A DNA stretch of 64,000 bases from Planctomycetota bacterium (lineage in GTDB: Bacteria > Planctomycetota > Planctomycetia > Pirellulales > Lacipirellulaceae). Both the position numbers and the translations under genes were made by a program. Location: assembly GCA_039190745.1 (NCBI GenBank), contig JBCCXZ010000012.1, positions 8,978 to 72,977 on the forward strand. The letters are read 5' to 3'. Of the stretch, positions 1 to 26,541 are shown one piece after another. The number at the start of each line of letters is the position of its first letter. Positions within the stretch are counted from its first letter, which is position 1. Below the pieces are notes generated by a model that worked only from the letters and a program-made list of their open reading frames with translations, was not told where the DNA came from and did not search any database.

Positions 1-343
1 CGCTTACGTCGGCCAGACCGGGCAGCGCCGAGGCGCCCAGCGTGGCGAGTTCGGCAGCGTCACTGACGCTGTTCAAGCCGAAGAAGCCCGGCTCCTCGGA
101 CTTGCGGTCGGCGGGCGGTTCTGTCGAGCCGAAGGGCGGCACGGAAGCATCAAAGAGGATCGACTCGAAGACCGTCGTAGTCAAATCGAAACTCGGGGTC
201 AAGTTGAGATCCTCGGCGGCGCCGATCCCGACCTTTCCGCCGAGGTCGACGAGCAGCACGTCGCTGTGGCCGAAAGCGGCGCACGGCAACGAAGCAGCAA
301 CCAAAAGTGCGGCAAACTTCGCCGCGTTCACTCTAGCAGTCAT
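1..343 (-). CDS. Secreted protein, runs off the window; the predicted mature N-terminus carries His (AFG|HSDVLL). Possibly a PEP-CTERM-type metal-starvation protein
   Basis: Read by hand: ATG at 343 with GGAG upstream; MTARVNAAKFAALLVAASLPCAAFGHSDVLLVDLGGKVGIG..., open to the window edge; signal-peptide-like N-terminus. Not in the ORF track because no stop is in the window. Confidence 0.7.
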   Translation of the reverse strand, partial: MTARVNAAKFAALLVAASLPCAAFGHSDVLLVDLGGKVGIGAAEDLNLTPSFDLTTTVFESILFDASVPPFGSTEPPADRKSEEPGFFGLNSVSDAAELATLGASALPGLADVS

Positions 344-459
344 TAGAACACTCCAATGCAATCAAAGGAAACTAAAACAGGGGTGAATACTCCGCGTCGT
401 CGATGTCAATGCAAGCACGAATCAACGGTGGGCGGAACTGCATACACAAAAGCTGACTC

Positions 460-481
460 TCCTGCGGGACACCCCGCAGGA
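460..481 (-). terminator. GC-rich stem-loop between DUF1559 and the downstream secreted gene (stabiliser or weak terminator)
   Basis: TCCTGCGGG-ACAC-CCCGCAGGA inverted repeat; no immediate U-tract. Confidence 0.35.
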
Positions 482-501
482 ACTCTCATCTCCGATAGCT
501 C

Positions 502-1260
502 TCAATTCTGGGGCGGGATCGCGAAGTTAAAGCCCGACTCACACCACTCCGCGATCTGGTCCGACGCGATCGATTCCACGTGCCCGTCGGCGTACAGATA
601 GTTGGCCGACGTGCTGTTATGCCGATTGACCGCTACGCTGAGCTGGACCTCCTCAAACACCTGACCGGGCTCAGGAGTCTCGTCTTCAAACCAGTCCTCC
701 GAGTGCACATGATCGAAGTCCCCGGCGTCCGCCTGCTGCAGCTTCGTAACTTCGAACAGCATGATCGTGCGGTGGGTGGATACCAGGTCGTACAAATTCT
801 CGACAAACCCTTCCGGGCTTTCCTGGAATCCGCCCCCGAACAGACTCTTCCCGGGAGGCGCTTTCCGCAGGTACCCGTTCATCATGTAACTCGTTCCGGG
901 GGAATTGGTCGTCTTGGCTTTCTCCAGGAGCTCTACGTCCTCCGGGCAAAACCGCATCTCGTTGACGTTCTCGAGCCAGGGAGCGAGCGTGAAGATCCAC
1001 GTCTGATCCCGGTCGACCCGGTCGCCTCCATCAGCATGCCAAACGAAGGGAAACCGCCCGCCGTGGCTGTTCGCGTGCTGGTGGATCGCGAGCCCGATTT
1101 GCCGCAGGTTGTTCGCGCACTGCACACGCCGAGCCGATGCGCGAGCTGACTGGATCGCCGGCAGCAGCAAGCCGATCAGCACGCCGATGATGGCGATCAC
1201 CACCAACAACTCGACGAGCGTGAAGCCAATCGGCTGTTGCTTACGAGCAAGCCTTGCCAC
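502..1260 (-). CDS. DUF1559 prepilin-type N-terminal cleavage/methylation protein with H-X9-DG motif
   Basis: [29 protein letters not shown]...[12 protein letters not shown]-terminal [16 protein letters not shown]. Confidence 0.92.
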
Positions 1261-1374
1261 AGGAGGGGCTCTCCGAGCTCGCGCAGTCGCTCGTTCGAAC
1301 GAGCACCGCCAAAGGCGTGAACGGGACAGATACAGCGGGCAACCGACGCCGCCGCACGCAGAACGGCCGAGAAC

Positions 1375-1872
1375 TTAGCCGAGTGCAGGCGGGCCGCGTG
1401 CGGGGTACTGCAACGCGAGCCGCAGCGGCTCGGCAACGTCGGACACCGGCGGCTCGTGCGGAGCCGACCAGAAAGCAGCGGGCACTTCGACCCGCTGCTC
1501 AAGAACCCTCGCGAGCGAGAGCAGCGAGCATAGAGAGCAATCGTCGCAACCTTCTAACGAAACCTGGGCCAAGAGAGCCGGGTCCGAAGAAGGCTCTTCA
1601 CTCGTGCTTCGGGGAGTTGCCGGTTGGCCGTGGCCAAAAGGACAGTCGCTGCAGCCACACAGCGAAGCAGACGAGCCCGATTCGTTGCCGCCGCCGTGGT
1701 GGGTGCTGTGATGGTGGATGCCGTGGTGGATGCCCGCCAGTCCGTGCAGCCCATAGCCCAAAGACGCAATACATGCATAGATCCCAATTAGGGACCATAC
1801 AAGAATCGGCGATGAAGGGCGGGGAGACACGAGGCCGACGGGAGTAGAAGAACGCAGCGGGCGGGGGGACAA
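1375..1872 (-). CDS. DUF2946-like Cys/His-rich leader protein ending in RGPP (putative ribosome-arrest peptide)
   Basis: Hydrophobic N-terminal segment, HHGIHHHSTHH, CxCxxC, CDDCSLC, C-terminal ARGPPALG; start codon uncertain. Confidence 0.75.
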   Translation of the reverse strand: MSPRPLRSSTPVGLVSPRPSSPILVWSLIGIYACIASLGYGLHGLAGIHHGIHHHSTHHGGGNESGSSASLCGCSDCPFGHGQPATPRSTSEEPSSDPALLAQVSLEGCDDCSLCSLLSLARVLEQRVEVPAAFWSAPHEPPVSDVAEPLRLALQYPARGPPALG

Positions 1873-1943
1873 AGACTGCCTGCGAACAGAAGTTCACGAC
1901 ACGCCGAGTCTATGCGACCGGGGCCCGAGGGTCAAATCGTTTC

Positions 1944-1958
1944 TGCAAATCAATTGCA
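1944..1958. promoter_or_regulatory. Putative Fur-family (Zur-like) operator TGCAA-N5-TTGCA
   Basis: TGCAAATCAATTGCA; the same palindrome occurs twice between the Fur-family gene and the COG0523 gene. Confidence 0.65.
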
Positions 1959-15499: not shown

Positions 15500-15943
15500 C
15501 TAGCCTGACTCGCAGTGACCACAGTGGCCGCGGATCATAATCTCGGTGACAGTACCTAGCTTCTCCCGCCGACCGCCTCGCGAAGGCTTAATCTGAAACG
15601 AATAATCCTCCAGGCAGGTCAGCCGACCGCAATCGACGCACATAAAGTGTGGGTGGGTAAACTCCGACTTGCTATCCGCACCTCTCAGCTCAAACCGTCT
15701 AGTATGATCCCCTAGGTCAAGCCTCGTCACGAGGCCAGCGTCCGCGAGCTCGTTCAAGCAACGAAAGAGCGTGGACTGATCGAACCCGAAGTCGCTCAGG
15801 GATTCGACGACTTCGGCGTGGGTCATCGGGGATGCCTCCGACGCCAGCAGCCTCAGAACCGCCACCCTTGCGGCAGTGGCGCGCAGGGCCACGTTCCGGA
15901 GGGTCTGTTTCGCCCAAGTTGCGTTTTTCTTGGGGAGCTTCAT
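15500..15943 (-). CDS. Fur-family transcriptional regulator (likely Zur-like)
   Basis: LRATAARVAVL, STLFRCL, HPHFMCVDCG, C-terminal GHCGHC; divergent from a COG0523 gene. Confidence 0.88.
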   Translation of the reverse strand: MKLPKKNATWAKQTLRNVALRATAARVAVLRLLASEASPMTHAEVVESLSDFGFDQSTLFRCLNELADAGLVTRLDLGDHTRRFELRGADSKSEFTHPHFMCVDCGRLTCLEDYSFQIKPSRGGRREKLGTVTEIMIRGHCGHCESG

Positions 15944-16001
15944 GCAATCTTCCTGCGGGACGAGAAGACTTTTTTAGAGCTTAGCCAAGCGCCAGCCCAC
16001 T

Positions 16002-16016
16002 TGCAATTGCATTGCA
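16002..16016. promoter_or_regulatory. Putative Fur/Zur operator 1
   Basis: TGCAA-TTGCA-TTGCA in the divergent promoter region. Confidence 0.65.
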
Positions 16017-16061
16017 CTTGCTGATTTCGCCGTTTTGCCAAGACCATCATACCCGCGCTAT

Positions 16062-16076
16062 TGCAATTCAATTGCA
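16062..16076. promoter_or_regulatory. Putative Fur/Zur operator 2
   Basis: TGCAA-TTCAA-TTGCA, 60 bp from operator 1. Confidence 0.7.
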
Positions 16077-16151
16077 TTAAGGTAGCTTGCGTTTAGATAT
16101 TGTCCCATTAGGGATATAACTTCCGTCCAGAGCGAGCGATTCATCAGCGCA

Positions 16152-17402
16152 TTGCCCATGCAGAAATCACTCCCAGTCACGGTCCTTTCCGGCTTCCTCG
16201 GCGCCGGCAAGACAACGGTCCTCAACCACGTGCTCGCCAATCGATCGGGGCTCCGTGTCGCGGTGATCGTCAACGACATGAGCGAGGTGAACATCGACGC
16301 CTCGTTGGTCCGCGGCGGTCAGTCGACCCTAAGCCGCACCGAAGAGAAGCTCGTCGAGATGACGAACGGGTGCATCTGCTGCACGCTCCGCGAAGACTTG
16401 CTCCAAGAGGTAGCAGAACTAGCCAGGGACGGCCGCTTCGACTACCTGCTGGTCGAGTCGACCGGCATTAGCGAGCCGCTGCCGGTGGCAGAGACCTTCA
16501 CGTTCGCTGACGAAGAGGGCGACAGCCTGTCCGACGTGGCTACGCTCGACACGATGGTGACCGTCGTGGACGCCGGCTGTTTCCTGAGCGACTTCGGTTC
16601 GTCCGACGATCTGGTCGATCGAAAGATGGGGCTTAGCGACGAGGACGAACGCAATGTCGTAGACCTGTTAACCGATCAGGTTGAGTTCGCGAACGTGATC
16701 CTGCTCAATAAGTACGACCTGATCGACGAGCCGGACAAGCTGATGCTGCTGGGCGTGCTGCGGAACCTCAACCCGAAGGCGCGGATCATCGAGACCCTGC
16801 ACGGCAAGATCGACCCCGGAGCCATCATGGGGACCGGGCTCTTCTCGATGGACGAAGCCAGCGCCCAGCCCGGCTGGCTGGAGGTGCCACGCGGCGAAGA
16901 GCAGCCCGAGACCGACGAGTACGGCATCACGAGCTTCGTCTACCGCGCCCGCCGGCCGTTCCACGCGGCCCGATTGTGGGATCGACTCAACCAGGAAGGC
17001 GGCATCCTGGCGGGCGTCCTGCGGTCGAAGGGGTTCCTCTGGGTCGCCTCTCGGCACGACTACGCATACGTCTGGGCCCACGCGGGGGTCTCGGTGCAGT
17101 TGAACCCAGCCGGCTTGTGGTGGGCGGCGGCGCCCGACGACGAGTGGCCCGAAGACACTCCCGAAAACGCCGAGCTGCTGGAAGATATCCGCAGCGAGTT
17201 TGATGACCCATTTGGCGACCGACGCCAAGAGATCGTATTCATCGGCATCGAAATGGACCGCCCGGTCATCGAGTCGATGCTGGAAGACTGCCTCCTGACC
17301 GACGAAGAGCTTGCATTCGGACCGGACCGGTGGGTCGATTTCGAAGACCCGCTGCCCACCATCGAGTGGCAGGACGGGGAGCCGATCGAGGAGAACCTGT
17401 GA
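16152..17402 (+). CDS. COG0523/CobW-family zinc metallochaperone GTPase (YciC/ZigA-like)
   Basis: [27 protein letters not shown], CobW C-terminal RSKGFLW and [11 protein letters not shown]. Confidence 0.95.
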
Positions 17403-18001
17403 GTCGTCTGGAGTCGATAGCGCCGGAATCGATTGAGAATGAAGCCTCCGATCACGGTACGGCCAACCCCTGGGCGGACCGGGCGGGGCTTGTAGCCTCG
17501 GTGGCGTGCGCCATCCATTGCGCGGCGATGCCGCTTGTGATCGGCTACCTGCCGATGCTTGGGTTGAGTTGGCTCGCGGACGAGTCGTTCCACAAGGTCA
17601 TGGCACTGGTTTGCTTTGGCCTGGCGGCGTTGGCGTTCTTGCCGGGGTGGCGCAGGCATGGGAGCCTCGCCCCGGTGCTGGTTGGATCGACCGGGGTGGT
17701 TCTGCTGGCGGTCGCGGCCTTCGGGCTCGAATGCGATGGCTGCGCGACCTGCTCGGAAACTAGCCTAGCGGCCGCAGAAGAGCCAGTTTGCAGCGCAACG
17801 GATTGTGCCCATTGCGCAGAAGCAGAGCCGGAAACCGTGGGCGAAGCCGCGGCTGTCGGCTCGATCGCGTGGTTTACGCCGCTGGTAACTCCACTCGGGG
17901 GGGTGCTGCTCGTTGCCGGGCACTTGACGAATCACCGGAAATCGTGCGCCTGCTGCGGAAAAGGCTGTCCGCATGATTCCGAGGCGTCTGCCGAATCATA
18001 G
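17399..18001 (+). CDS. MerC-domain membrane protein with Cys-rich insert and tail
   Basis: [15 protein letters not shown] motif; [22 protein letters not shown] start overlaps the upstream stop. Confidence 0.8.
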
Positions 18002-18097
18002 CCGAAAATAGACGGCCTTTTTGCACCCAGTTCCTCGCCCAGGCAACCTCCCAGGCGCTGTGAAAAGCCTTATTCTTCCTTGCCTAGAAGGCTCTGC

Positions 18098-18112
18098 TGC
18101 AACACAATTGTA
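18098..18112. promoter_or_regulatory. Putative Fur/Zur operator (1 mismatch) ahead of the second RGPP leader
   Basis: TGCAA-CACAA-TTGTA, 18 nt before ATG 18131. Confidence 0.5.
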
Positions 18113-18130
18113 GTAGAGCCTAATCTACTT

Positions 18131-18562
18131 ATGCACCGCATTCTCAACAAAACCGCCGCTTGGTTAGCACTAGCGCACGTTGTGCTAGTAGGTGGTCTCG
18201 GTACGGGCCTGCACGCCTTGCTAGGCTGCGAGCATGGGTTGACCGAAAACTGCTCCGCCGCCTGCTGTGTGTCCGCCAAGTCGACGAGCGCTAGCTGTGA
18301 AGACTGCGTCTACTGCAGGCGGGCGGCTGAAAAGCAAAACAGCAACGACCAGCAAGAAGAAACCCTCGTCGCCGATGCGGGCCAGTGCTGCGGCGGTTGC
18401 GCCGTCTGCGATCTGCTGGCCCAGTATCAGAGCGTGACGCCTTTCGCCGTCGAGCCGCTCGCGATCGAGTTGGCCTCGGGCGAAGCGCCGATACAGCACG
18501 AGAACGCGGTGATCGCCGCCGCGATCCGTCTGTCCCATTCTCGCGGCCCACCCGTGGCTTGA
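18131..18562 (+). CDS. DUF2946-like Cys-rich leader protein ending in RGPP (putative ribosome-arrest peptide)
   Basis: TM-like N-terminus ...GLGTGLHALLG, CEDCVYC, CCGGCAVC, C-terminal HSRGPPVA. Confidence 0.78.
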   Translation: MHRILNKTAAWLALAHVVLVGGLGTGLHALLGCEHGLTENCSAACCVSAKSTSASCEDCVYCRRAAEKQNSNDQQEETLVADAGQCCGGCAVCDLLAQYQSVTPFAVEPLAIELASGEAPIQHENAVIAAAIRLSHSRGPPVA

Positions 18563-18613
18563 CCTTCGTTGCCTTCGCTCCGAAGGCTCGTCCGTTCAGT
18601 GCCGCTCTGCCAT

Positions 18614-18628
18614 TGCAACACTCTCGCA
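18614..18628. promoter_or_regulatory. Possible degenerate Fur/Zur box before the permease
   Basis: TGCAA-CACTC-TCGCA (1 mismatch). Confidence 0.35.
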
Positions 18629-18677
18629 AGGAGTTGTGCGCGGGCACGCGGCGTCTCCGCCCGCTTATGGGTCACAG

Positions 18678-19832
18678 ATGCCAATCATCCAAGAGTTTTG
18701 CACCGCGTTCTGTGCGGTCCTGCTTGAGTCCGCGCCGCTGGTGGTGCTCGGGTTTGTGATCGCCGGTCTGCTGCACGAATTCGTGCCCGACAAAATTCTG
18801 CGGCGTGGTGTCGCTGGGCGTAGCCTGGCGCCTGTGGCGCGCGTCGTGGGCGTTGGCGCACTGCTGCCAATTTGCTCGTGCAGCACGATTCCACTGGGAG
18901 TTGGATTGACCCGGAGCGGCGCATCGATCGGCACCGCCCTGGCGTTCATGACCAGCTCGCCGGCGATCTCGCCGGTTACGGTGGTGCTCGGCTGGGCTGT
19001 GCTAGGGCCCATGCTGCTGGGGTGGTATAGCCTGGTGGCGGTCGTGGCGGCCGTCGTGATTGGGCTCGTGGGCAACCACTGGCTCGGCGAAGTGCCCGAG
19101 CCAGCGAAAACCAAGTCCGCCTGCTCCTGCAGCTGCGGCGCCAATCCCCCAGCTGCCAACAAGCTGTCGAAGGCCCTCCGCTGGTCGTTCGACGAACTCG
19201 GGACAGACCTCAGCGGATCGCTGCTGCTGGGCCTCCTCGCGGCGTCGCTCATCCTCGTGGCCTTGCCCGAAGGCATAGTGAGCGGCTGGCTCGCCGAGCC
19301 GAGCTGGACCGCGATGGCCGCCGCGGTGGCCGTCTCACTGCCCGCCTACACCTGTTCGGTGCCGTCTCTGTTGATCGCCGGCAGCCTCTTGACCCGAGGG
19401 GTCGACCCGGGGGTGGCCGTGGCGTTCCTGATCGCCGGCCCCGCCACCAACCTCGGTGAGCTGAACGCGATCCGCGGGGCAATGGGCTCTCGAGCCGCCG
19501 CGTTCTACGGCGGTTCGCTGATCGCGATCGCGCTGGCGGCGGGCTCCGCGACGGCGTGGTTGCCAGAGGCCGCGGTGACGACGCCGCACGCCCACGCGGG
19601 CCACGACCACGGGCACGCCCTGGAGGCGGTCGTGCTCTCCGGCGAAGGCCAGGTATCGCTTAGCTCGACTCCACGCTGGCGTTGGTTGTTCGCGGGGTGC
19701 ATTGCGGTTCTTGCTGTCCGCTCGATGCTGCGTTGCATGACGGCCGCGCACAAACACGGGCAAGACACGAAACACAAACCAGCCGCTGAGCCGGCCGGCG
19801 CGCCGCAACTCTACGGAGTCGCCACGAAATGA
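18678..19832 (+). CDS. DUF318/ArsP-like permease with His-rich loop
   Basis: LLPICSCSTIP, AFMTSSPAISP, AFLIAGPATN; HAHAGHDHGH; start moved to MPIIQE. Confidence 0.85.
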   Translation: MPIIQEFCTAFCAVLLESAPLVVLGFVIAGLLHEFVPDKILRRGVAGRSLAPVARVVGVGALLPICSCSTIPLGVGLTRSGASIGTALAFMTSSPAISPVTVVLGWAVLGPMLLGWYSLVAVVAAVVIGLVGNHWLGEVPEPAKTKSACSCSCGANPPAANKLSKALRWSFDELGTDLSGSLLLGLLAASLILVALPEGIVSGWLAEPSWTAMAAAVAVSLPAYTCSVPSLLIAGSLLTRGVDPGVAVAFLIAGPATNLGELNAIRGAMGSRAAAFYGGSLIAIALAAGSATAWLPEAAVTTPHAHAGHDHGHALEAVVLSGEGQVSLSSTPRWRWLFAGCIAVLAVRSMLRCMTAAHKHGQDTKHKPAAEPAGAPQLYGVATK

Positions 19833-21103
19833 GCCGACTGTTCACGAGCACGACCCGGGCGCCGCGGCCGCGAACCAAGCGTTCGTTGGCGGATTGGCTG
19901 AAGTGGGTCGCCCTCGAAGACCATTGTGAATGGGCCAACCGCTACGTGGCGTGGCTGAAGACCCCGCTCGGCGTCCTCCTGGTCGGGGCATTTGTCTCGC
20001 TACTCAGCGGCCTGTTCGTTGCGCCGCAAGGGTTCGCGCTGCTGGCCGGCATCGTGATGGTCATCGCGGTTGGGCTCGCGTGGCCGTGGATCGCAATGCG
20101 GGGCATTCACGCGCAGCTTGAGTTCGCCTCTCGGCGAGGCCGTGAGGGAAAACCAACGGTCGCCAAGTTTGTTGTCAGCAACCGGTGGCCCTGGCCAGTC
20201 TGGGGACTCGCTGTTGACGACCCGTTCACTGCCGACTCCTCGGAAGCGGCGGCACTGGCCCGCATCGACGGCTGGTCGCGGGCAACCTTCGATTGCACGT
20301 TCACTCCCTCAATGCGGGGCGCATACCCCCGGAAGAGTGTCCTCATCGGCACTGCCTTCCCTTTCGGCCTCTGGCGGGCATCGCGGCCTGTGAAGTCGGA
20401 AAAGCGTCTTATCGTTTGGCCGCAGACGTTTTGGCTCCCGCCGCTGGGCGACAGCAGCAGCCGCGTCGACTGGCGAGGCGTGCTCTCAGAAGACCGCGCA
20501 GGCGCGGAAGGCTTCCGGCTCGGCACGCGAGAGCATCGGCACGGCGATACGCTCCGCGACGTGCACTGGGCCAAGAGCGCACGCTACGACCGACTGATCG
20601 TGAGCGAACGCGAGGCTTCGGTTGTCCCTGAAATTGCCGTGTTCGTAGATACCGACCCAGCGAGGCACTCAGCGGCGGGCGGCGACTCGACCCTCGAGTG
20701 GTCGCTGCGCATCGCGGCGAGTATCTGTGAGTCGGTGGTTGAGAAACAGGGGGGCGTTCAGCTTTGGCTAGGGAATAAAAGGGTCTGTGCCCACTCGACC
20801 GAACTGCACCTGCAGCGGCTTTTGGATGAAATCGCTCTGTTGCATCAGGACGGCGCGGAATCGTCACAATCCGGCGGCGCACCGCAACTCAGCAACGCGC
20901 CCGGCATCCGCGTCTCGATCGGCACGCACCTGAGCCCGATCCGAACCAACCGGGCGATTGTCTTGAGCGGCTATGGATTCGGAGGAAAACAAGAGCGGGA
21001 CGACATCAACGGCTGGATCGTTGTCGACACGCCCGAGGACGTAGCCGACCAGATTCTCAAAGGCTGGCGGAACGGCACGCGGAGGGTCAGCCGTGCCCGT
21101 TAG
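19829..21103 (+). CDS. DUF58 domain protein
   Basis: FPFGLW, REHRHGDTLRDVHWAKSAR, LRIAASI. Confidence 0.85.
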   Translation: MSRLFTSTTRAPRPRTKRSLADWLKWVALEDHCEWANRYVAWLKTPLGVLLVGAFVSLLSGLFVAPQGFALLAGIVMVIAVGLAWPWIAMRGIHAQLEFASRRGREGKPTVAKFVVSNRWPWPVWGLAVDDPFTADSSEAAALARIDGWSRATFDCTFTPSMRGAYPRKSVLIGTAFPFGLWRASRPVKSEKRLIVWPQTFWLPPLGDSSSRVDWRGVLSEDRAGAEGFRLGTREHRHGDTLRDVHWAKSARYDRLIVSEREASVVPEIAVFVDTDPARHSAAGGDSTLEWSLRIAASICESVVEKQGGVQLWLGNKRVCAHSTELHLQRLLDEIALLHQDGAESSQSGGAPQLSNAPGIRVSIGTHLSPIRTNRAIVLSGYGFGGKQERDDINGWIVVDTPEDVADQILKGWRNGTRRVSRAR

Positions 21104-23372
21104 CCAGCACCTTAGCCGTGTCACTGTGGTGCTGGTTCTGATCGCGACCGCGCTCTTGCAATTTGCGCTAGACGGTCGCGGGGTGCACGATGGCCCTGCG
21201 TTGCTGGCCGTCTCCGTCGGAGGCGCGGTCTTCGTGGGGATGCTCGCCCGACGGCGTCGCTGGTCGGATTGGAACCTCGGCGCAGTTCTAAGCGTGCTCG
21301 CCCTTGCGTTGCTCCCCATCGTCTGGGATGGGGCCGCGCGGGTTTCCACACGGTTCGGCAACCCCTACGAAGTGCAGTTAGCGTGCGTTCTCCGGAACGC
21401 GATGCTCGGCTTGGCCGCAACGCCCCGCCTGCCGCGGGCCACGATCCAAGCCGCTTTCGCGAGCTTCTTCTTGGTCGTGTTCGGCTTCCTGTGGGCGACA
21501 GACTTCTGGTCTATCGGGCTGTTGGTCGCCTACTCGGCCGTCGGCGCGTGGTGGCTCTTCGCCGCGTACTGGGAAGGCCTCGGCGGACGGTTTGCCGACT
21601 CTTCAGAGCGTGCCGTCCCGGTGCGGCCAGCCCTCGCGGTCATCGCGTGCCTGGTGTTGTTGGCGTTGGCCGCGGCCCCCTTGGCGAGCCGGTCGAAAGC
21701 CACCACGGCCCTCGCCGGTTTCTTCCCGAGCTCCGGCGGGACGTTCTGGAACGACCCGTACGCGCAGGGAGGCGTCGGGGACGGCGATCAGATGGTTGCG
21801 GCGAAAGACCAGGCATCCGGCTTCGGACCGATCGATACCGATCTGTTCCTCGAATCAGAAATGCCGAGCCTCTACGACAGCTTTAGCGAGTTTTCCGAGG
21901 CGGAACCGGTCAAGAAGAAGCGCGTGCGGCGTGCCATACCGCTGGCGCCGTCCCAGATGCAGAGCAACCACAAGCGGCGCGGGCTCACGCAGCAATCCAC
22001 CCGCGAGTTTGATACGGTCCGCCAAAACACGGCGCAGACCCCGGAGACCAAAGACCGGCTATCGGCGGCCTTGTTGCTGGTGAAGGGGCAAACCCCGCTG
22101 CACCTGGCGTTGGAGACCTACGACCGCTGGGACGGCCGTTCGCTCATTGCCAGCAGCGAGCAGGCACCGCTGGAGACCAAGCTCCGCAACGCGGAAGAGG
22201 GCGGCCTCCGCTGGCTCGACCTTTCGATCACGCTGCCGAGTGACTGCTTTACGTCCTCTAGCCGGAACCAGGTGCGCATCGTCAATCTCAAGACAAAGCG
22301 GGTGCCAACACCCGCCGGAACGAGGAGCGTTACGCTCAGCCGGCTTCACTCGGGCTCGATGTTCACATTTGCCGACGACGGTTCTCTGGCGATGGCGGTC
22401 GACCACGTCCCTCAGCTTACAATCTTCGAGTTCGAAGCCGGGCTCCGCGACAGGCACTCGACCCTCCAAATGGAGCAGTCGGCCCCAGAGGCAAGCGACG
22501 ACGCGGCCACCCTCCTAGCCCGTGAGTGGGTGCGCGGCGTCCCCGCAGGATGGCCGCAAGTTGAGGCAGTGGTCGCTCGCCTGCGGCAAGACTACACACA
22601 CGACCAGACCGCAATGGTTCCCAGCGATGCAGAAGACTCCGTAGAGTACTTCCTGAGCAATTCCAAGCGGGGTCCAGACTTTCTGTTCGCCGCCTCCGCC
22701 GCGGTGATGCTGCGGTCCCTGGGGTACGACACCCGAGTGCGGAGCGGGTTCTACGCCAACCCCGACCGATTCGAGCGCAACTCTGACTTGACCCCGGTCG
22801 TCGCCGAAGACGCCCACTTCTGGGTTGAGGTCCGCACCAGTAACGGGCTGCGGGTGACGAAAGGCGGTGAGAAACTAGCCGGCGTTTGGGCGACGGTTGA
22901 ACCCACCCCGGGATACGAGTTGCTTTACGCCCCGGAAACGCTGCTGACCCGCTTTCGGCGAACGGTCGTGGCTTGCTTGTTGTTGCTCGCAGCCTACCCG
23001 ATCGTTTCTTGCTCTGTACTGATCGTCGCTGGCGTGGCTTTAGCGACCCGGCGCAGGTTGTTCGACGCGACGCTCGTGGGTTGGTGGTCGGTCCTTTCAC
23101 GAGGGGCCAAGGCAGACCGGCTGGCTCGGCTAACGCTCCGCTTGCTGCAGTGGCGTGCGTGGGCTCATCGGCAGAGTCGCCCGATCGGGACCCCCCTTGG
23201 AAAATGGGAAACACTTTACGCCCACGGCGACTTCGTCGCCCTCGCCTCGTGGGCGCTCTACGGCGAGGGCACACCGGCCCCCTTGCGGCCGCAGTGCGCC
23301 CGCCGAGCCTGCTGGGATGCAATCCGAACACCTTTGCCACGAGCGGGTAGGCCGCAGGAAGGCCAACGATGA
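21093..23372 (+). CDS. Membrane-anchored transglutaminase-like protein (catalytic Cys absent)
   Basis: N-terminal TMs; RGPDFLFAASAAVMLRSLG, DAHFWVEV, VEPTPG. Confidence 0.8.
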   Translation: MPVSQHLSRVTVVLVLIATALLQFALDGRGVHDGPALLAVSVGGAVFVGMLARRRRWSDWNLGAVLSVLALALLPIVWDGAARVSTRFGNPYEVQLACVLRNAMLGLAATPRLPRATIQAAFASFFLVVFGFLWATDFWSIGLLVAYSAVGAWWLFAAYWEGLGGRFADSSERAVPVRPALAVIACLVLLALAAAPLASRSKATTALAGFFPSSGGTFWNDPYAQGGVGDGDQMVAAKDQASGFGPIDTDLFLESEMPSLYDSFSEFSEAEPVKKKRVRRAIPLAPSQMQSNHKRRGLTQQSTREFDTVRQNTAQTPETKDRLSAALLLVKGQTPLHLALETYDRWDGRSLIASSEQAPLETKLRNAEEGGLRWLDLSITLPSDCFTSSSRNQVRIVNLKTKRVPTPAGTRSVTLSRLHSGSMFTFADDGSLAMAVDHVPQLTIFEFEAGLRDRHSTLQMEQSAPEASDDAATLLAREWVRGVPAGWPQVEAVVARLRQDYTHDQTAMVPSDAEDSVEYFLSNSKRGPDFLFAASAAVMLRSLGYDTRVRSGFYANPDRFERNSDLTPVVAEDAHFWVEVRTSNGLRVTKGGEKLAGVWATVEPTPGYELLYAPETLLTRFRRTVVACLLLLAAYPIVSCSVLIVAGVALATRRRLFDATLVGWWSVLSRGAKADRLARLTLRLLQWRAWAHRQSRPIGTPLGKWETLYAHGDFVALASWALYGEGTPAPLRPQCARRACWDAIRTPLPRAGRPQEGQR

Positions 23373-24328
23373 AGACTCTCGCCGAAACTTCGAGAATCGA
23401 GCACAACGCCGATCACGGGATCGTCGAAGAACTGCGTACCGAGTTGAACCAAGCGTTGCGTGGCAAAGCGGATGTCGTCGAGATGGTCCTTGCCTGCCTG
23501 CTGGCAAAAGGGCACCTGCTCTTGGAGGACCTGCCCGGTCTGGGCAAGACTACACTCGCCAAAGCCCTCGCGCACGCGGTTGGCGGCAGGTACTCCCGCG
23601 TCCAGTGCACGCCCGACCTGATGCCGAGCGACATCACGGGCTTCAACCTGCTGAACCAGAAGACCAGAGAGTTTGAGTTCAGCGAAGGCCCGGTGTTTAC
23701 CGACGTGCTGCTCGCTGATGAAATCAACCGAGCTACGCCGCGCACCCAGAGTGCGCTCTTCGAGGCGATGGCCGAACGTCAAGTCACCATCGACCGCGAA
23801 CGCCGCCTGCTGCCGAGCACATTCTTCGTTATCGCGACGCAGAACCCTATCGAGAGCCACGGAGCTTACCCCCTCCCGGAGGCGCAGCTCGACCGCTTTG
23901 CGATGAAGCTGTCGATCGGTTACCCCGACCCCGAGAGCGAACTGGCGATGCTCCAAGACGATGCGGCTACTGGAGGCGACAACGAAGAACGGTCGGCGGT
24001 CGTCGCCCCCGTCGCCCTTGGGGAACTCCAGGAGCACGCCCAGGCCACTATCGTCAGCGAAAAGGTCCAGCAGTACCTCGTCGCCATCGCGAGCGAGACC
24101 CGCGAGAACGAACACGTGACGCTCGGGCTCAGCCCCAGAGGGGTCCTCACCTGGCAACGAGTCGCGCAAGCGCGGGCTTTCCTCCAAGGCCGCAACTTCG
24201 TCACGCCCGACGACATACAAGACGTTGCCGGTCCGGTGCTGCGTGTCCGGCTCGCCGGCGACTTCCCGGACGCAGACTCGTTCATCAAAGACCTGCTGGC
24301 ACGCACGCCGGCGCCGACATTCGATTAG
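23369..24328 (+). CDS. MoxR-family AAA+ ATPase
   Basis: EDLPGLGKT, TPDLMPSDITG, LADEINRATPRTQSAL, YPLPEAQLDRF. Confidence 0.95.
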   Translation: MKTLAETSRIEHNADHGIVEELRTELNQALRGKADVVEMVLACLLAKGHLLLEDLPGLGKTTLAKALAHAVGGRYSRVQCTPDLMPSDITGFNLLNQKTREFEFSEGPVFTDVLLADEINRATPRTQSALFEAMAERQVTIDRERRLLPSTFFVIATQNPIESHGAYPLPEAQLDRFAMKLSIGYPDPESELAMLQDDAATGGDNEERSAVVAPVALGELQEHAQATIVSEKVQQYLVAIASETRENEHVTLGLSPRGVLTWQRVAQARAFLQGRNFVTPDDIQDVAGPVLRVRLAGDFPDADSFIKDLLARTPAPTFD

Positions 24329-24361
24329 CCCACTTCTTTACCCTTCTCAACAGAGCCTGCC

Positions 24362-24988
24362 GTGTTGCCAATAAGACTAATCCACAGATTCTGCCTGTTT
24401 ACCGCGACTTCGGTTTGCCTCGCGTCGCTCGCCGGCTGCGGAACCAGCGGAGAGAGCGATTCCGAGCACTCGCACGGCCACGAGCATGACCACGACCACG
24501 GTCACAGCCACCGCCCGGAGTCGCTCCACGAAGCGGTCGCAGAGCTCGAAAGCCTTAGCGAGGCCATCCGGACGGCCATCGTTGACGGCGATCCGAAGGA
24601 CGCCCACGACCCGCTGCACGAGATCGGATATCTGCTCGAAGCGATCCCGGATGTCGCCGCAGAGACGGACCTGCCAGAAGAAGAATGGAACGCCGTGAAA
24701 GCCGCGAGCGAGCAGCTGTTCGATGCTTTCGCCGAGATCGACAAGACTTACCACGTCGAGGACGGAGACAAGCAGGCGGTTTACGAAGACGTCTCCGCTG
24801 GTGTAGACGAGGCCATCGAGGAAATCCGCTCGCGGCTGCCGCTCACTGGCGAGAAGCCTGATGCCAGTGACCACGATCACAGTGACCACGATCACGACGG
24901 CCACAGCCACGACGACGGCCACGATCACGGTAGCGGGGACGAAGGCGAGGCCTCCGGGTCGGATGAGCGAGCCGAGGACTCGGAATGA
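24362..24988 (+). CDS. His/Asp-rich lipoprotein, probable metal binder
   Basis: LAGC lipobox; HSHGHEHDHDHGHSH and DHDHSDHDHDGHSHDDGHDH. Confidence 0.8.
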   Translation: MLPIRLIHRFCLFTATSVCLASLAGCGTSGESDSEHSHGHEHDHDHGHSHRPESLHEAVAELESLSEAIRTAIVDGDPKDAHDPLHEIGYLLEAIPDVAAETDLPEEEWNAVKAASEQLFDAFAEIDKTYHVEDGDKQAVYEDVSAGVDEAIEEIRSRLPLTGEKPDASDHDHSDHDHDGHSHDDGHDHGSGDEGEASGSDERAEDSE

Positions 24989-26541
24989 GCGGCGCCGTCG
25001 AGGCGGTATTCTGGGGCGGGCTGCTCCGCTTTGCTCAAGCGACGCTCGCCGCCGCCCCGACCCTCTTGGTCGGGCTTGTTGTGGCCGGGGTCTTCCGGAA
25101 ACTGCTCGGCCCCGATGCGACGCGCAAAGCATTCGGCGGCGACTCTTGGCGTAGCCTCCCACAAGCGTGGCTCTGGGGAATGCTATTGCCGGTCTGCTCT
25201 CTCGGGGTGATCCCCGTCGCGTACGAACTAAGGCGCTCAGGCCTCTCAGGAGGGACGATCCTTGCCTTCTGCCTCACAGCGCCGCTCTTCAACCCGCTGT
25301 CCTTGCTCTACGGGCTGACACTTTCGTCTCCAACGGTGCTGATGGCCTTCGCGTTCGCATCGCTCTTGGTGGTCACCGTTGTTGGATTCACCTGGGACCG
25401 GTTGTTCCCTCACACTGCACAGCCTCCGTGCGAGGAACCCGCGGTGCCCCCGGGCTTGGGCAGGATCCTCTCGGTAGGTATGGCGTCCGCGAGGCACGCG
25501 GCCGGCCCGACACTCCTGTATTGTCTCATCGGGCTCTCGGGCAGCATGCTGCTGACGGTCATCTTCCCGCACGGGAGCCTGACCGACTCGATGGCCCACA
25601 CCGACCGAACCGCCCCACTGCAGATGCTACGGGTCGCGATCCCGGCCTACGCCACGCCGCTGAACGTCATGATGCAAGTCGGCGGAATGTTCGTTCACGG
25701 AAACTCGGTCGGAGCCGCCTACGTTCTGCTCGCCCTCGGCGCCGGCGCGAATCTCGGGCTCATCGCCTGGGCTTGGCGGACCTACGGCTTCGGCCGCGCT
25801 GCTACGTTCCTCTCGCTGCTGATTGCGGTCGTCATGGTCATCGCTTACGCGGTCGAGGACCCCCTGTACTCGGCCGGCTCGGTCGAGCACCCGCACACCC
25901 ATGCGTTCGACGTGTACGCTTGCCCGTTCCGTGCGGGCTCACGGAACCTTGCTGATCGGGCCCGGCGGCTACTCGCAGACGATATGCCGATGTACGAGCT
26001 TATCTCGCTAGCCGCGGTCGCAACCTTTGTGGCGTCAGGGCTTGGGCTGCGGCGGTTCGATCCAGAAGGGCAGATCGAAGCCTCGCTGGCCAGCCGGGCA
26101 CAGCCCGCAGAAGACGCACCGAAGTCGGTCTTGAACGCGGAGGTGCCGGGCCCGGTGCTCGGCGGCGTCGCGATCGCGGGCCTCGTCGCCCTGAGCATCG
26201 TGGGTTGCTTTATCTTCTACCCAGCTCCCGAAGAGACGCTGGAGGAAATGAGGTACGTCCGGGCCGACTTGTGGTCTTACGCCGCCTCGAAGGACGTGGA
26301 GAACACCGGCAGGTGCATCCAACGGTACGACGACCTTACCCGCAGGCTGCAGGTCGGCTACTACCTGCGCACCCTCACGCTCACCGAGTTCCAGCAGTCC
26401 AAAGCACGCGTCCTGCGGGGGCGACTGGAACAGCTGAAAGACGTTGTCGAGGCGGGCGAGTTCGACCGGGTACGAGAACTCAACACACGCGTGAGCGACG
26501 CCCACCAGAGAGTCCGCGAGGCGTTTGAAGGCAACGAGTAA
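24985..26541 (+). CDS. Second DUF318-like permease with C-terminal helical domain
   Basis: LLPVCSLGVIP, AFCLTAPLFNP, EHPHTHAFD. Confidence 0.8.
   Translation: MSGAVEAVFWGGLLRFAQATLAAAPTLLVGLVVAGVFRKLLGPDATRKAFGGDSWRSLPQAWLWGMLLPVCSLGVIPVAYELRRSGLSGGTILAFCLTAPLFNPLSLLYGLTLSSPTVLMAFAFASLLVVTVVGFTWDRLFPHTAQPPCEEPAVPPGLGRILSVGMASARHAAGPTLLYCLIGLSGSMLLTVIFPHGSLTDSMAHTDRTAPLQMLRVAIPAYATPLNVMMQVGGMFVHGNSVGAAYVLLALGAGANLGLIAWAWRTYGFGRAATFLSLLIAVVMVIAYAVEDPLYSAGSVEHPHTHAFDVYACPFRAGSRNLADRARRLLADDMPMYELISLAAVATFVASGLGLRRFDPEGQIEASLASRAQPAEDAPKSVLNAEVPGPVLGGVAIAGLVALSIVGCFIFYPAPEETLEEMRYVRADLWSYAASKDVENTGRCIQRYDDLTRRLQVGYYLRTLTLTEFQQSKARVLRGRLEQLKDVVEAGEFDRVRELNTRVSDAHQRVREAFEGNE

Follow-up and report, generated by a model that had tools for sequence, protein, structure and literature searches.

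An operon on the minus strand at one end of a 64,000-nucleotide (nt) stretch from a Planctomycetota bacterium (family Lacipirellulaceae, assembly GCA_039190745.1, contig JBCCXZ010000012.1, positions 8,978 to 72,977) was found to consist of a leader open reading frame (ORF), a short DUF1559 gene for a pilin-like protein with a histidine motif, and two genes for secreted PEP-CTERM-type proteins. This stretch, here called the window, corresponds to G000:C12:8978-72977, where G000 denotes the genome under study and C12 the contig; the one sequencing run containing it is a marine metagenome. The 41 DUF1559 genes of the genome and the ESM Atlas neighbors likewise suggest a planctomycete. The operon is conserved in planctomycetes, and its probable role at the cell surface is to capture a transition metal in short supply, with zinc as the best candidate. 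The gene order, the conservation of motifs and spacings, and the co-location of a Fur-type box with a regulator gene were observed directly, and the function is deduced from these sequence features. If this function is right, zinc is the metal that we rather favor, copper and nickel/cobalt are equally doubtful, and any other metal is very improbable.

Organization and conservation of the cassette

The original prediction, made from the letters of the window, had described a TGCAA-N5-TTGCA box, a transmembrane/His/CxxC leader ending in RGPP, a DUF1559 gene with an FDHVHS motif and a secreted protein whose mature form starts with His, and all four were recovered. The box is the palindromic operator TGCAATTGATTTGCA (1944–1958, minus strand), a candidate site at which the Fur-family protein encoded at 15500–15943 probably binds. 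A candidate sigma-70-type promoter, TTGACC-17-TAGACT (1907–1935, minus strand), starts 8 nt downstream of the box; one such promoter was found compared to 0.8 in shuffled sequences, which is weak alone, and TTGACC and TAGACT are also found behind the box in a genome of the same genus. The leader ORF (1375–1872, minus strand; start uncertain, TTG at 1872 or GTG at 1833) is followed by an intergenic spacer of 114 nt (1261–1374) and by the DUF1559 gene (502–1260, minus strand; 240 amino acids (aa) counted from the pilin Phe). Only the 5′ part of the gene for PEP-CTERM-type protein 1 lies in the window (1–343, minus strand), the whole gene being G000:C12:8493-9320, and its paralogue, protein 2, comes next at C12:7355-8368, beyond the window edge. 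Because the secreted gene continues across the edge to a PEP-CTERM-like tail, with the paralogue next to it, the unit was defined as box, leader, DUF1559, PEP-1 and PEP-2.

A total of 41 genomes were searched for the cassette, and 49 short-DUF1559 loci were found in 27 of them, all of which were inspected together with flanks of about 6 kb where contigs allowed. A leader was present at 47 of the 49 loci and a member of the same PEP-CTERM family at 45, and the order leader-DUF1559-PEP was found at 28 loci from 22 genomes. One of the two leaderless loci lies at a contig start; the other (L051) carries three boxes and is divergent from a Fur-family gene. The search for leaders upstream of DUF1559 genes, which had been proposed as a check on the original prediction, thus bears out the conservation of gene order. 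In a sample of the phylum, the cassette was detected in 4 of 300 other genomes (5 of 301 with this one), an underestimate because scoring was limited to 12 candidates in each genome and did not pick up the Met type described below. Three of these four distant genomes show the order leader, DUF1559 and secreted His protein, in two cases directly behind a Fur-like gene; the fourth (G285) does not.

The gene for a CBS-domain protein that lies immediately upstream of the box (1989–2462) was ruled out as a member of the unit, as it adjoins only 5 of the 49 loci. Downstream of the cassette (G000:C12:5409-7266), a bacterial PH-domain gene and two thioredoxin-like genes were found, an arrangement kept in four genomes only.

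The leader peptide

Landmarks of the leader on the minus strand are a hydrophobic segment (from 1797) and a His/Cys-rich loop, together with a run of His (1708–1728), CSLC (1528–1539) and RGPP (1387–1398). The distance from CxxC to RGPP is 43 residues here, 42–45 in all 22 leaders of this class from relatives and 42–44 in all 19 found later (41 of 41 overall). Compared to the orthologue from the same genus, the leader differs at 28, 15 and 57 first, second and third codon positions, respectively (129 codons), and the RGPP codons vary synonymously among 27 leaders. This codon-position bias and the synonymous variation make it very likely that the leader is a translated peptide.

In the CruR/DUF2946 family, CxxC and the RAPP-type motif are reported to be separated by 45 residues, plus or minus one or two (PMC9426467), and arrest of CruR was demonstrated in vitro (PMC12992588). 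A few planctomycete DUF2946 genes are mentioned in PMC9426467. By analogy, the leader is likely a CruR-type metal-sensing arrest peptide, at which ribosomes would stall. The assignment to the CruR/DUF2946 type stood in part: the spacing, the first position in the operon, the N-terminal export signal (a hydrophobic segment read from the sequence) and the long spacer (114 nt, compared to a median of 135 nt in 31 cassettes) all agree with it, and the match to the family model PF11162 does not, at 9 bits against a cut-off of 23.7 (the highest of 44 leaders scanned reached 19.2). The 31 cassette spacers showed a mean folding z of −0.9 by a crude doublet shuffle.

The 47 cassette leaders fell into three classes: 23 of CxxC-RGPP type, 5 His-rich ending in RGPP and 19 Cys-rich ending in PPP, the last Cys of the latter being located 47–50 residues ahead of PPP in all 18 that were aligned. 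On a tree of 53 pilin heads (L077 excluded as truncated), the leader classes clustered, with 6 changes compared to 22.6 after shuffling. Three leader chemistries (CxxC, His and Cys-rich PPP) are thus represented, and the distance between Cys and the stall motif is fixed.

The pairing of leaders with DUF1559 genes is already catalogued and the type of switch is already known: the source data of Figure 4B in PMC12992588 tabulate 112 RAPP compared to 68 AAPP upstream ORFs before DUF1559 (6.5-fold). The main text of that paper does not contain the term DUF1559, and the pairing may be plotted in the figure itself. The term is likewise not in the supplement text of PMC9426467 and PMC9973294; the neighbor list in File S1 of the latter, probably outside the text searched, could list the pairing. 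In the literature searched, no account was found of the pilin subfamily with the His motif and its surface partners, of the ligand-swapped paralogous cassettes or of the link to a Fur-family/ZepA regulon.

The pilin-like protein

The DUF1559 ORF matched PF07596 with 63.4 bits (cut-off 23.3) over model positions 1–62 only, and it was also above the cut-offs for the Pfam N_methyl model (21.3 against 21.2 bits) and TIGR02532 (22.2 against 16.3). It contains GFTLVELL (1204–1227), a [DE]-H-x-[HDE]..W motif that reads DHVHSEDW (691–714) and H-X9-DG (583–621), all on the minus strand. The structure model (pLDDT, the predicted local distance difference test, of 91) consists of a helix of 51 residues (9–59), the one hydrophobic helix, and a globular head. 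No Foldseek match was obtained at E 0.001; the best rows were pilins, with E values of at least 0.14 and 57–86 columns covered.

Within the head, H178 and H208 are present in all 46 pilins compared and E164 in 45, and [DE]177 and [HDE]180 are likewise conserved in 45 or 46. Among 150 independent representatives, H178 was found in 147, H180 in 130 and H208 in 117; the head family comprises 125 clusters with E values of 1e-30 or lower. A metal site formed by E164, D177, H178, H180 and H208 is predicted from this conservation.

The DUF1559 protein had been placed in the slot of the metal importer. Neither the model nor family searches showed a barrel or a multi-pass membrane domain, as in a TonB receptor or a permease, and no transporter family recurs next to the 49 cassettes. 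A role as importer was therefore dropped; with no transporter recurring in the cassettes, the slot is apt by position and not by function. Three secretins and eight T2SSE ATPases are encoded in the genome. No TonB receptor (PF00593) was found in this genome, which is 95% complete, nor in three of four relatives.

The surface proteins

Cleavage sites were assigned by the −3/−1 rule only. In protein 1, whose ORF starts at 343, cleavage is predicted between AAFG and H, so that the mature form would start with His1 (codon 266–268); it also carries D134-x-H136. Its PEP-CTERM tail (PEP, a hydrophobic stretch and a basic end) was read directly, the hidden Markov model (HMM) match being below cut-off (17.5 against 20.7 bits); 34 of the 69 members of this surface-protein family match TIGR02595 at E 0.1, and the exosortase EpsH is encoded in the genome. 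Histidine is predicted at mature position +1 in 39 of 68 members and at +2 in 12 (51 of 68 together), and H136 is kept in 64 of 69. Only 4 of about 136 PEP-CTERM-like genes of this genome belong to the family, all of them in two cassettes.

The surface domain was modeled with a pLDDT of 96 as mostly beta and matched no named family. At E 0.001 nothing was retrieved for it by Foldseek; the best VIA hit had a Z of 6.5 (root-mean-square deviation 4.1, 119 aligned), and PDB sequences gave no match. No match to NF040463 (ZepA/all3515) was found for either protein here or for any of the 69 family members. For Choice-of-anchor M (NF038134), no HMM match was obtained, and hhalign to a three-sequence template gave 0.6% probability, over the HxH..GxY stretch only.

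The box and the Fur-family regulon

Counts of the plain 5-N5-5 box were rejected as evidence, as 6 sites were found genome-wide compared to 0–5 for other spacers. An extended consensus was built from the sites of this genome and is circular within it; its five best sites here are all intergenic. Two of them are the perfect copies (16002–16076) between the Fur-family regulator gene (15500–15943, minus strand), which encodes the candidate cognate repressor, and the operon of a ZigA-like COG0523 GTPase gene (16152–17402, plus strand; 589 bits against a cut-off of 600). The others lie at the C12 cassette, ahead of the operon that includes another COG0523 gene, and about 2.3 kb upstream of the leader of a second cassette on contig C5.

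In five relatives, 46 sites with at most one mismatch were found, compared to 6 for a reversed control, and of the six perfect sites four are at cassettes and one is ahead of a ZepA-family gene. The box lies within 330 nt of 8 of 22 CxxC leaders from relatives, as compared to 0.5% of shuffles; it was also found at 6 of 19 further CxxC leaders and upstream of 9 of 21 regulator orthologues (6 of 840 shuffles). Genes of the ZepA/all3515 family, in which ZepA mediates zinc uptake (PMC10957091), are present inside 4 of the 49 cassettes and also in an operon of genome G023 with the order regulator, boxes, RGPP leader, long DUF1559, two PEP-CTERM genes and ZepA. The box is thus shared by the Fur-family gene and by zinc-starvation genes (COG0523 and ZepA-family), which fits a Zur-type regulon, and this co-regulation marks starvation. 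The Fur-type box and the context of metal limitation that had been claimed for this locus were therefore upheld. The regulator itself showed only sub-cut-off matches to Fur/PerR models, and its nearest solved chains were Fur (E 3e-9) and Nur 3eyy (E 0.003).

The regulator gene is part of a metal-homeostasis cluster with two perfect boxes (15500–26541), in which it is divergent from the COG0523 gene and which further contains genes for a MerC-like protein, a second RGPP leader, an ArsP_1 permease, DUF58, a transglutaminase-like protein, an AAA ATPase, a His-rich protein and a second permease. The second leader, of the same TM/CxxC/RGPP type (18080–18562, plus strand), is located upstream of the ArsP_1 (SO_0444-like) permease gene at about 18678–19832. 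Elsewhere in the genome, a perfect box precedes a FAD-type oxidoreductase operon (G000:C43:25150-29326), the last gene of which is the second COG0523 gene. At G000:C28:218-3373, a ZnuA/TroA-family gene and, by eye, a DtxR/MntR-like regulator gene are divergent from a long DUF1559 gene and a small lipoprotein gene, with two similar palindromes in between; this DUF1559 gene is possibly metal-controlled.

Paralogous cassettes and the range of the leaders

Profiles made from relatives only detected four leaders in this genome, three at the head of short DUF1559 cassettes (C12, C5 and C25) and one before the permease (18678). The C5 cassette (G000:C5:43923-49413) contains, in this order, a box, a thioredoxin-like ORF, a His-rich ORF, a His-type RGPP leader, a PEP-CTERM gene, an HxH DUF1559 gene and another PEP-CTERM gene. 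The C25 cassette (G000:C25:21549-24686) consists of a Cys-rich PPP leader, a short DUF1559 gene with a Met-containing motif and a gene for a Met/His-rich two-domain PEP-CTERM protein. Met replaces some His in the C25 paralogues, pilin and surface proteins alike, and these sequences suggest that this cassette is a copper version. In planctomycetes, DUF1559 is reported to rank with the function-unknown families that have expanded most, with 41 or more genes per genome (PMC8567305). Extending the finding to DUF1559 proteins in general did not hold, as leaders precede just 3 of the 41 DUF1559 genes here.

Order-wide, Cys-rich leaders were found in 99 of 151 genomes and CxxC leaders in 65 of 121. 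For Cys-rich leaders outside the training set, a prepilin-type gene was among the first two genes at 34 of 36 loci (two pilins by eye). Nineteen new CxxC loci were followed by the HxH type (6), a long DUF1559 (9), a Flp-like gene (1) or other genes (3). The link between leader and pilin is thus wider than the HxH subfamily, as CxxC leaders also head long DUF1559 and Flp-like genes.

Some of these loci have other arrangements. L149 and L186 (G377:C18) form a tandem of two leaders, one of CxxC type that has a box and one of Cys-rich type, with small Flp-like pilin genes after each. At L153, L156, L161, L165 and L148, Cys-rich leaders precede N_methyl pilin-like genes without DUF1559, two of these loci being arrays of three or four. 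A Cys-rich leader was also found with a long DUF1559 gene and PepSY_TM (L154, L157, L159, L164) or DUF4198 (L150, L162, L167).

Proposed mechanism and points against it

When loaded with metal, the Fur-family protein would bind the box and repress the cassette and the COG0523 operons. When metal is scarce, ribosomes would stall at RGPP, as for CruR, and the downstream genes would be expressed; metal bound by the CxxC/His loop, 43 residues from the stall site, would free the stall and shut these genes off. The exosortase-sorted surface proteins are predicted to bind metal by His1 and the [HDE]-x-H pair. Least certain is the last step, in which the helix of the prepilin-type protein would serve as an anchor, either in the membrane or in a type II secretion/type IV pilus filament, and the protein may bind metal with its head (E164, D177, H178, H180, H208) and receive it from the surface proteins or help to display them. 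The pilin-like protein would not be a channel, and an inner-membrane importer would be encoded elsewhere.

Several observations weigh against this mechanism. The relatives compared are not independent. Across the order, the same leaders also precede DUF1559 genes of the long form that lack the HxH head (9 of 19), as well as non-pilin genes (3 of 19), and both leaders studied so far, CruR and CutF, sense copper, in opposite directions (bioRxiv 2025.02.05.636593). No significant hairpin occluding the ribosome-binding site was found in the spacer 1261–1374 (z 0.04), nor a C-rich, rut-like skew of the Rho type (C over G 0.96 here, 1.05 overall). Dual transcriptional and translational control, as originally proposed, is plausible for this locus, which has both box and leader; it did not extend to the cassettes at large, as only 9 of 23 CxxC leaders and none of the 24 others have the box (missing at 14 of 23 CxxC, 5 of 5 His and 19 of 19 Cys-rich leaders) and L051 is leaderless. 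The box was not found before the only ZnuA/TroA-family gene of the genome, and it lies upstream of the candidate −35 and does not overlap it. Its sequence equals that of the nickel Nur box of Streptomyces (PMC2691836), so that the metal cannot be read from the box. A search of this genome for ZepA found none, a weak negative since the control was also blank, and surface protein 2 of this cassette lacks His1.

Alternative explanations

A copper (or nickel/cobalt) system is the alternative that survives best, although we consider it improbable. The leader would be a true CruR-like copper sensor, the box a general metal-stress input, and the His1 proteins copper binders of a histidine-brace-like kind, a likeness that we presume. 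The CxxC-43-RGPP arrangement matches CruR, and PepSY_TM, which with DUF4198 was found behind Cys-rich leaders of the order (four and three loci, respectively), also comes after CruR homologues (PMC9426467). The identity with the Nur box, the Met-rich cassette at C25 and the nearest ESM Atlas cluster, auto-named MbnP-like metallo-mystery pair (0.92, which is under the threshold for recognition), point in the same direction. However, genes of the ZepA family and ZigA-like COG0523 genes occur with the same box or in the same kind of cassette, and all four cassettes with ZepA fall into the same 21-row clade (97/85) as the pilin described here. The Met-rich sequences form a clade of their own (100/100), an indication that copper is handled by the Met-rich paralogue.

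A module for secretion monitoring and cargo export, in which DUF1559 would be a pseudopilin that exports the neighboring PEP-CTERM proteins and the RGPP leader would sense translocon pulling force as SecM-type peptides do, metal being secondary, is still more doubtful. RAPP/RGPP peptides often monitor protein localization (PMC10987492), ordinary DUF1559 genes of the genome are likewise often near PEP-CTERM genes, and prepilin-type genes of several kinds follow the leaders (34 of 36 Cys-rich, 16 of 19 CxxC). Against this stand the invariant His/Cys of the leader at a fixed distance, the conserved His of the pilin head itself and the leaders ahead of a metal permease; if the cargo binds metal, export is compatible with the last step of the mechanism proposed above. 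Metal detoxification, with a CutF-like switch that activates the operon in metal excess and surface proteins that sequester the metal, is very unlikely: CutF stalls upon copper binding (bioRxiv 2025.02.05.636593), the second leader of the window precedes a permease of SO_0444-like efflux type (match below cut-off) and the position of the box recalls Zur-activated zitB (PMC6103462), but the motif for stalling, RGPP, agrees with CruR and is not PPP, the spacer showed no occluding hairpin, and the co-regulated genes mark starvation.

Returning to surface capture of metal, a bolder version of it is that planctomycetes with few or no TonB receptors import trace metals by a pilin route through the secretin, with metal-specific DUF1559 paralogues (His for zinc, Met for copper, others under manganese-type control) on a type II secretion/type IV pilus filament fed by the His-tipped surface proteins. 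This is speculative, and we hold it to be rather unlikely. If true, the DUF1559 expansion would stand in for TonB receptors in this phylum and would explain trace-metal uptake without them. With a candidate regulator, a presumed inducing condition, candidate ligands and partners now at hand for one subfamily, DUF1559 function becomes directly testable.

Comparison with known systems

With type IV pilins and type II secretion pseudopilins, the DUF1559 protein shares the G-F-T-L-x-E motif, the predicted 51-residue helix and the best Foldseek rows; it differs in the weakness of these matches, with E values no lower than 0.14, and in that the head has no clear solved match. Like the DUF1559/SBP_bac_10 family (PF07596 and PF07963; PMC8567305), it has a prepilin motif, a long N-terminal helix and H-X9-DG, but it is short (about 220–250 aa, compared to about 280–440 aa for most others in the genome), matches PF07596 at 1–62 only and carries the HxH motif.

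The surface proteins resemble ZepA/All3515 of Anabaena (NF040463; PMC10957091) in a presumed Zur-type control, signal peptide, predicted mature N-terminal His and PEP-CTERM tail, and family members occur within related cassettes, but both proteins here lack the NF040463 match. The words pilin, DUF1559 and DUF2946 do not occur in the main text of PMC10957091. CutF-CutO of Rhodobacter capsulatus (PMC9973294; bioRxiv 2025.02.05.636593) likewise has an exported Cys leader with a Pro-rich end and resembles the Cys-rich PPP leaders of the paralogous cassettes, whereas CutF switches on in copper excess by means of a hairpin, which was not found in the spacer here.

In layout, the operon resembles CruR-BfrG of Bordetella pertussis (PF11162; PMC9426467), with an exported CxxC leader in first position, a C-terminal R-x-P-P motif at similar spacing (43 compared to 45 residues) and a spacer of more than 100 nt after the leader. 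The leader described here differs in being below the Pfam cut-off, in ending with RGPP, in its extra His loop and in the Fur-family box upstream, and pilin-like and PEP-CTERM genes are present in place of the TonB receptor. The operon would thus extend metal-sensing arrest peptides to a new cargo.

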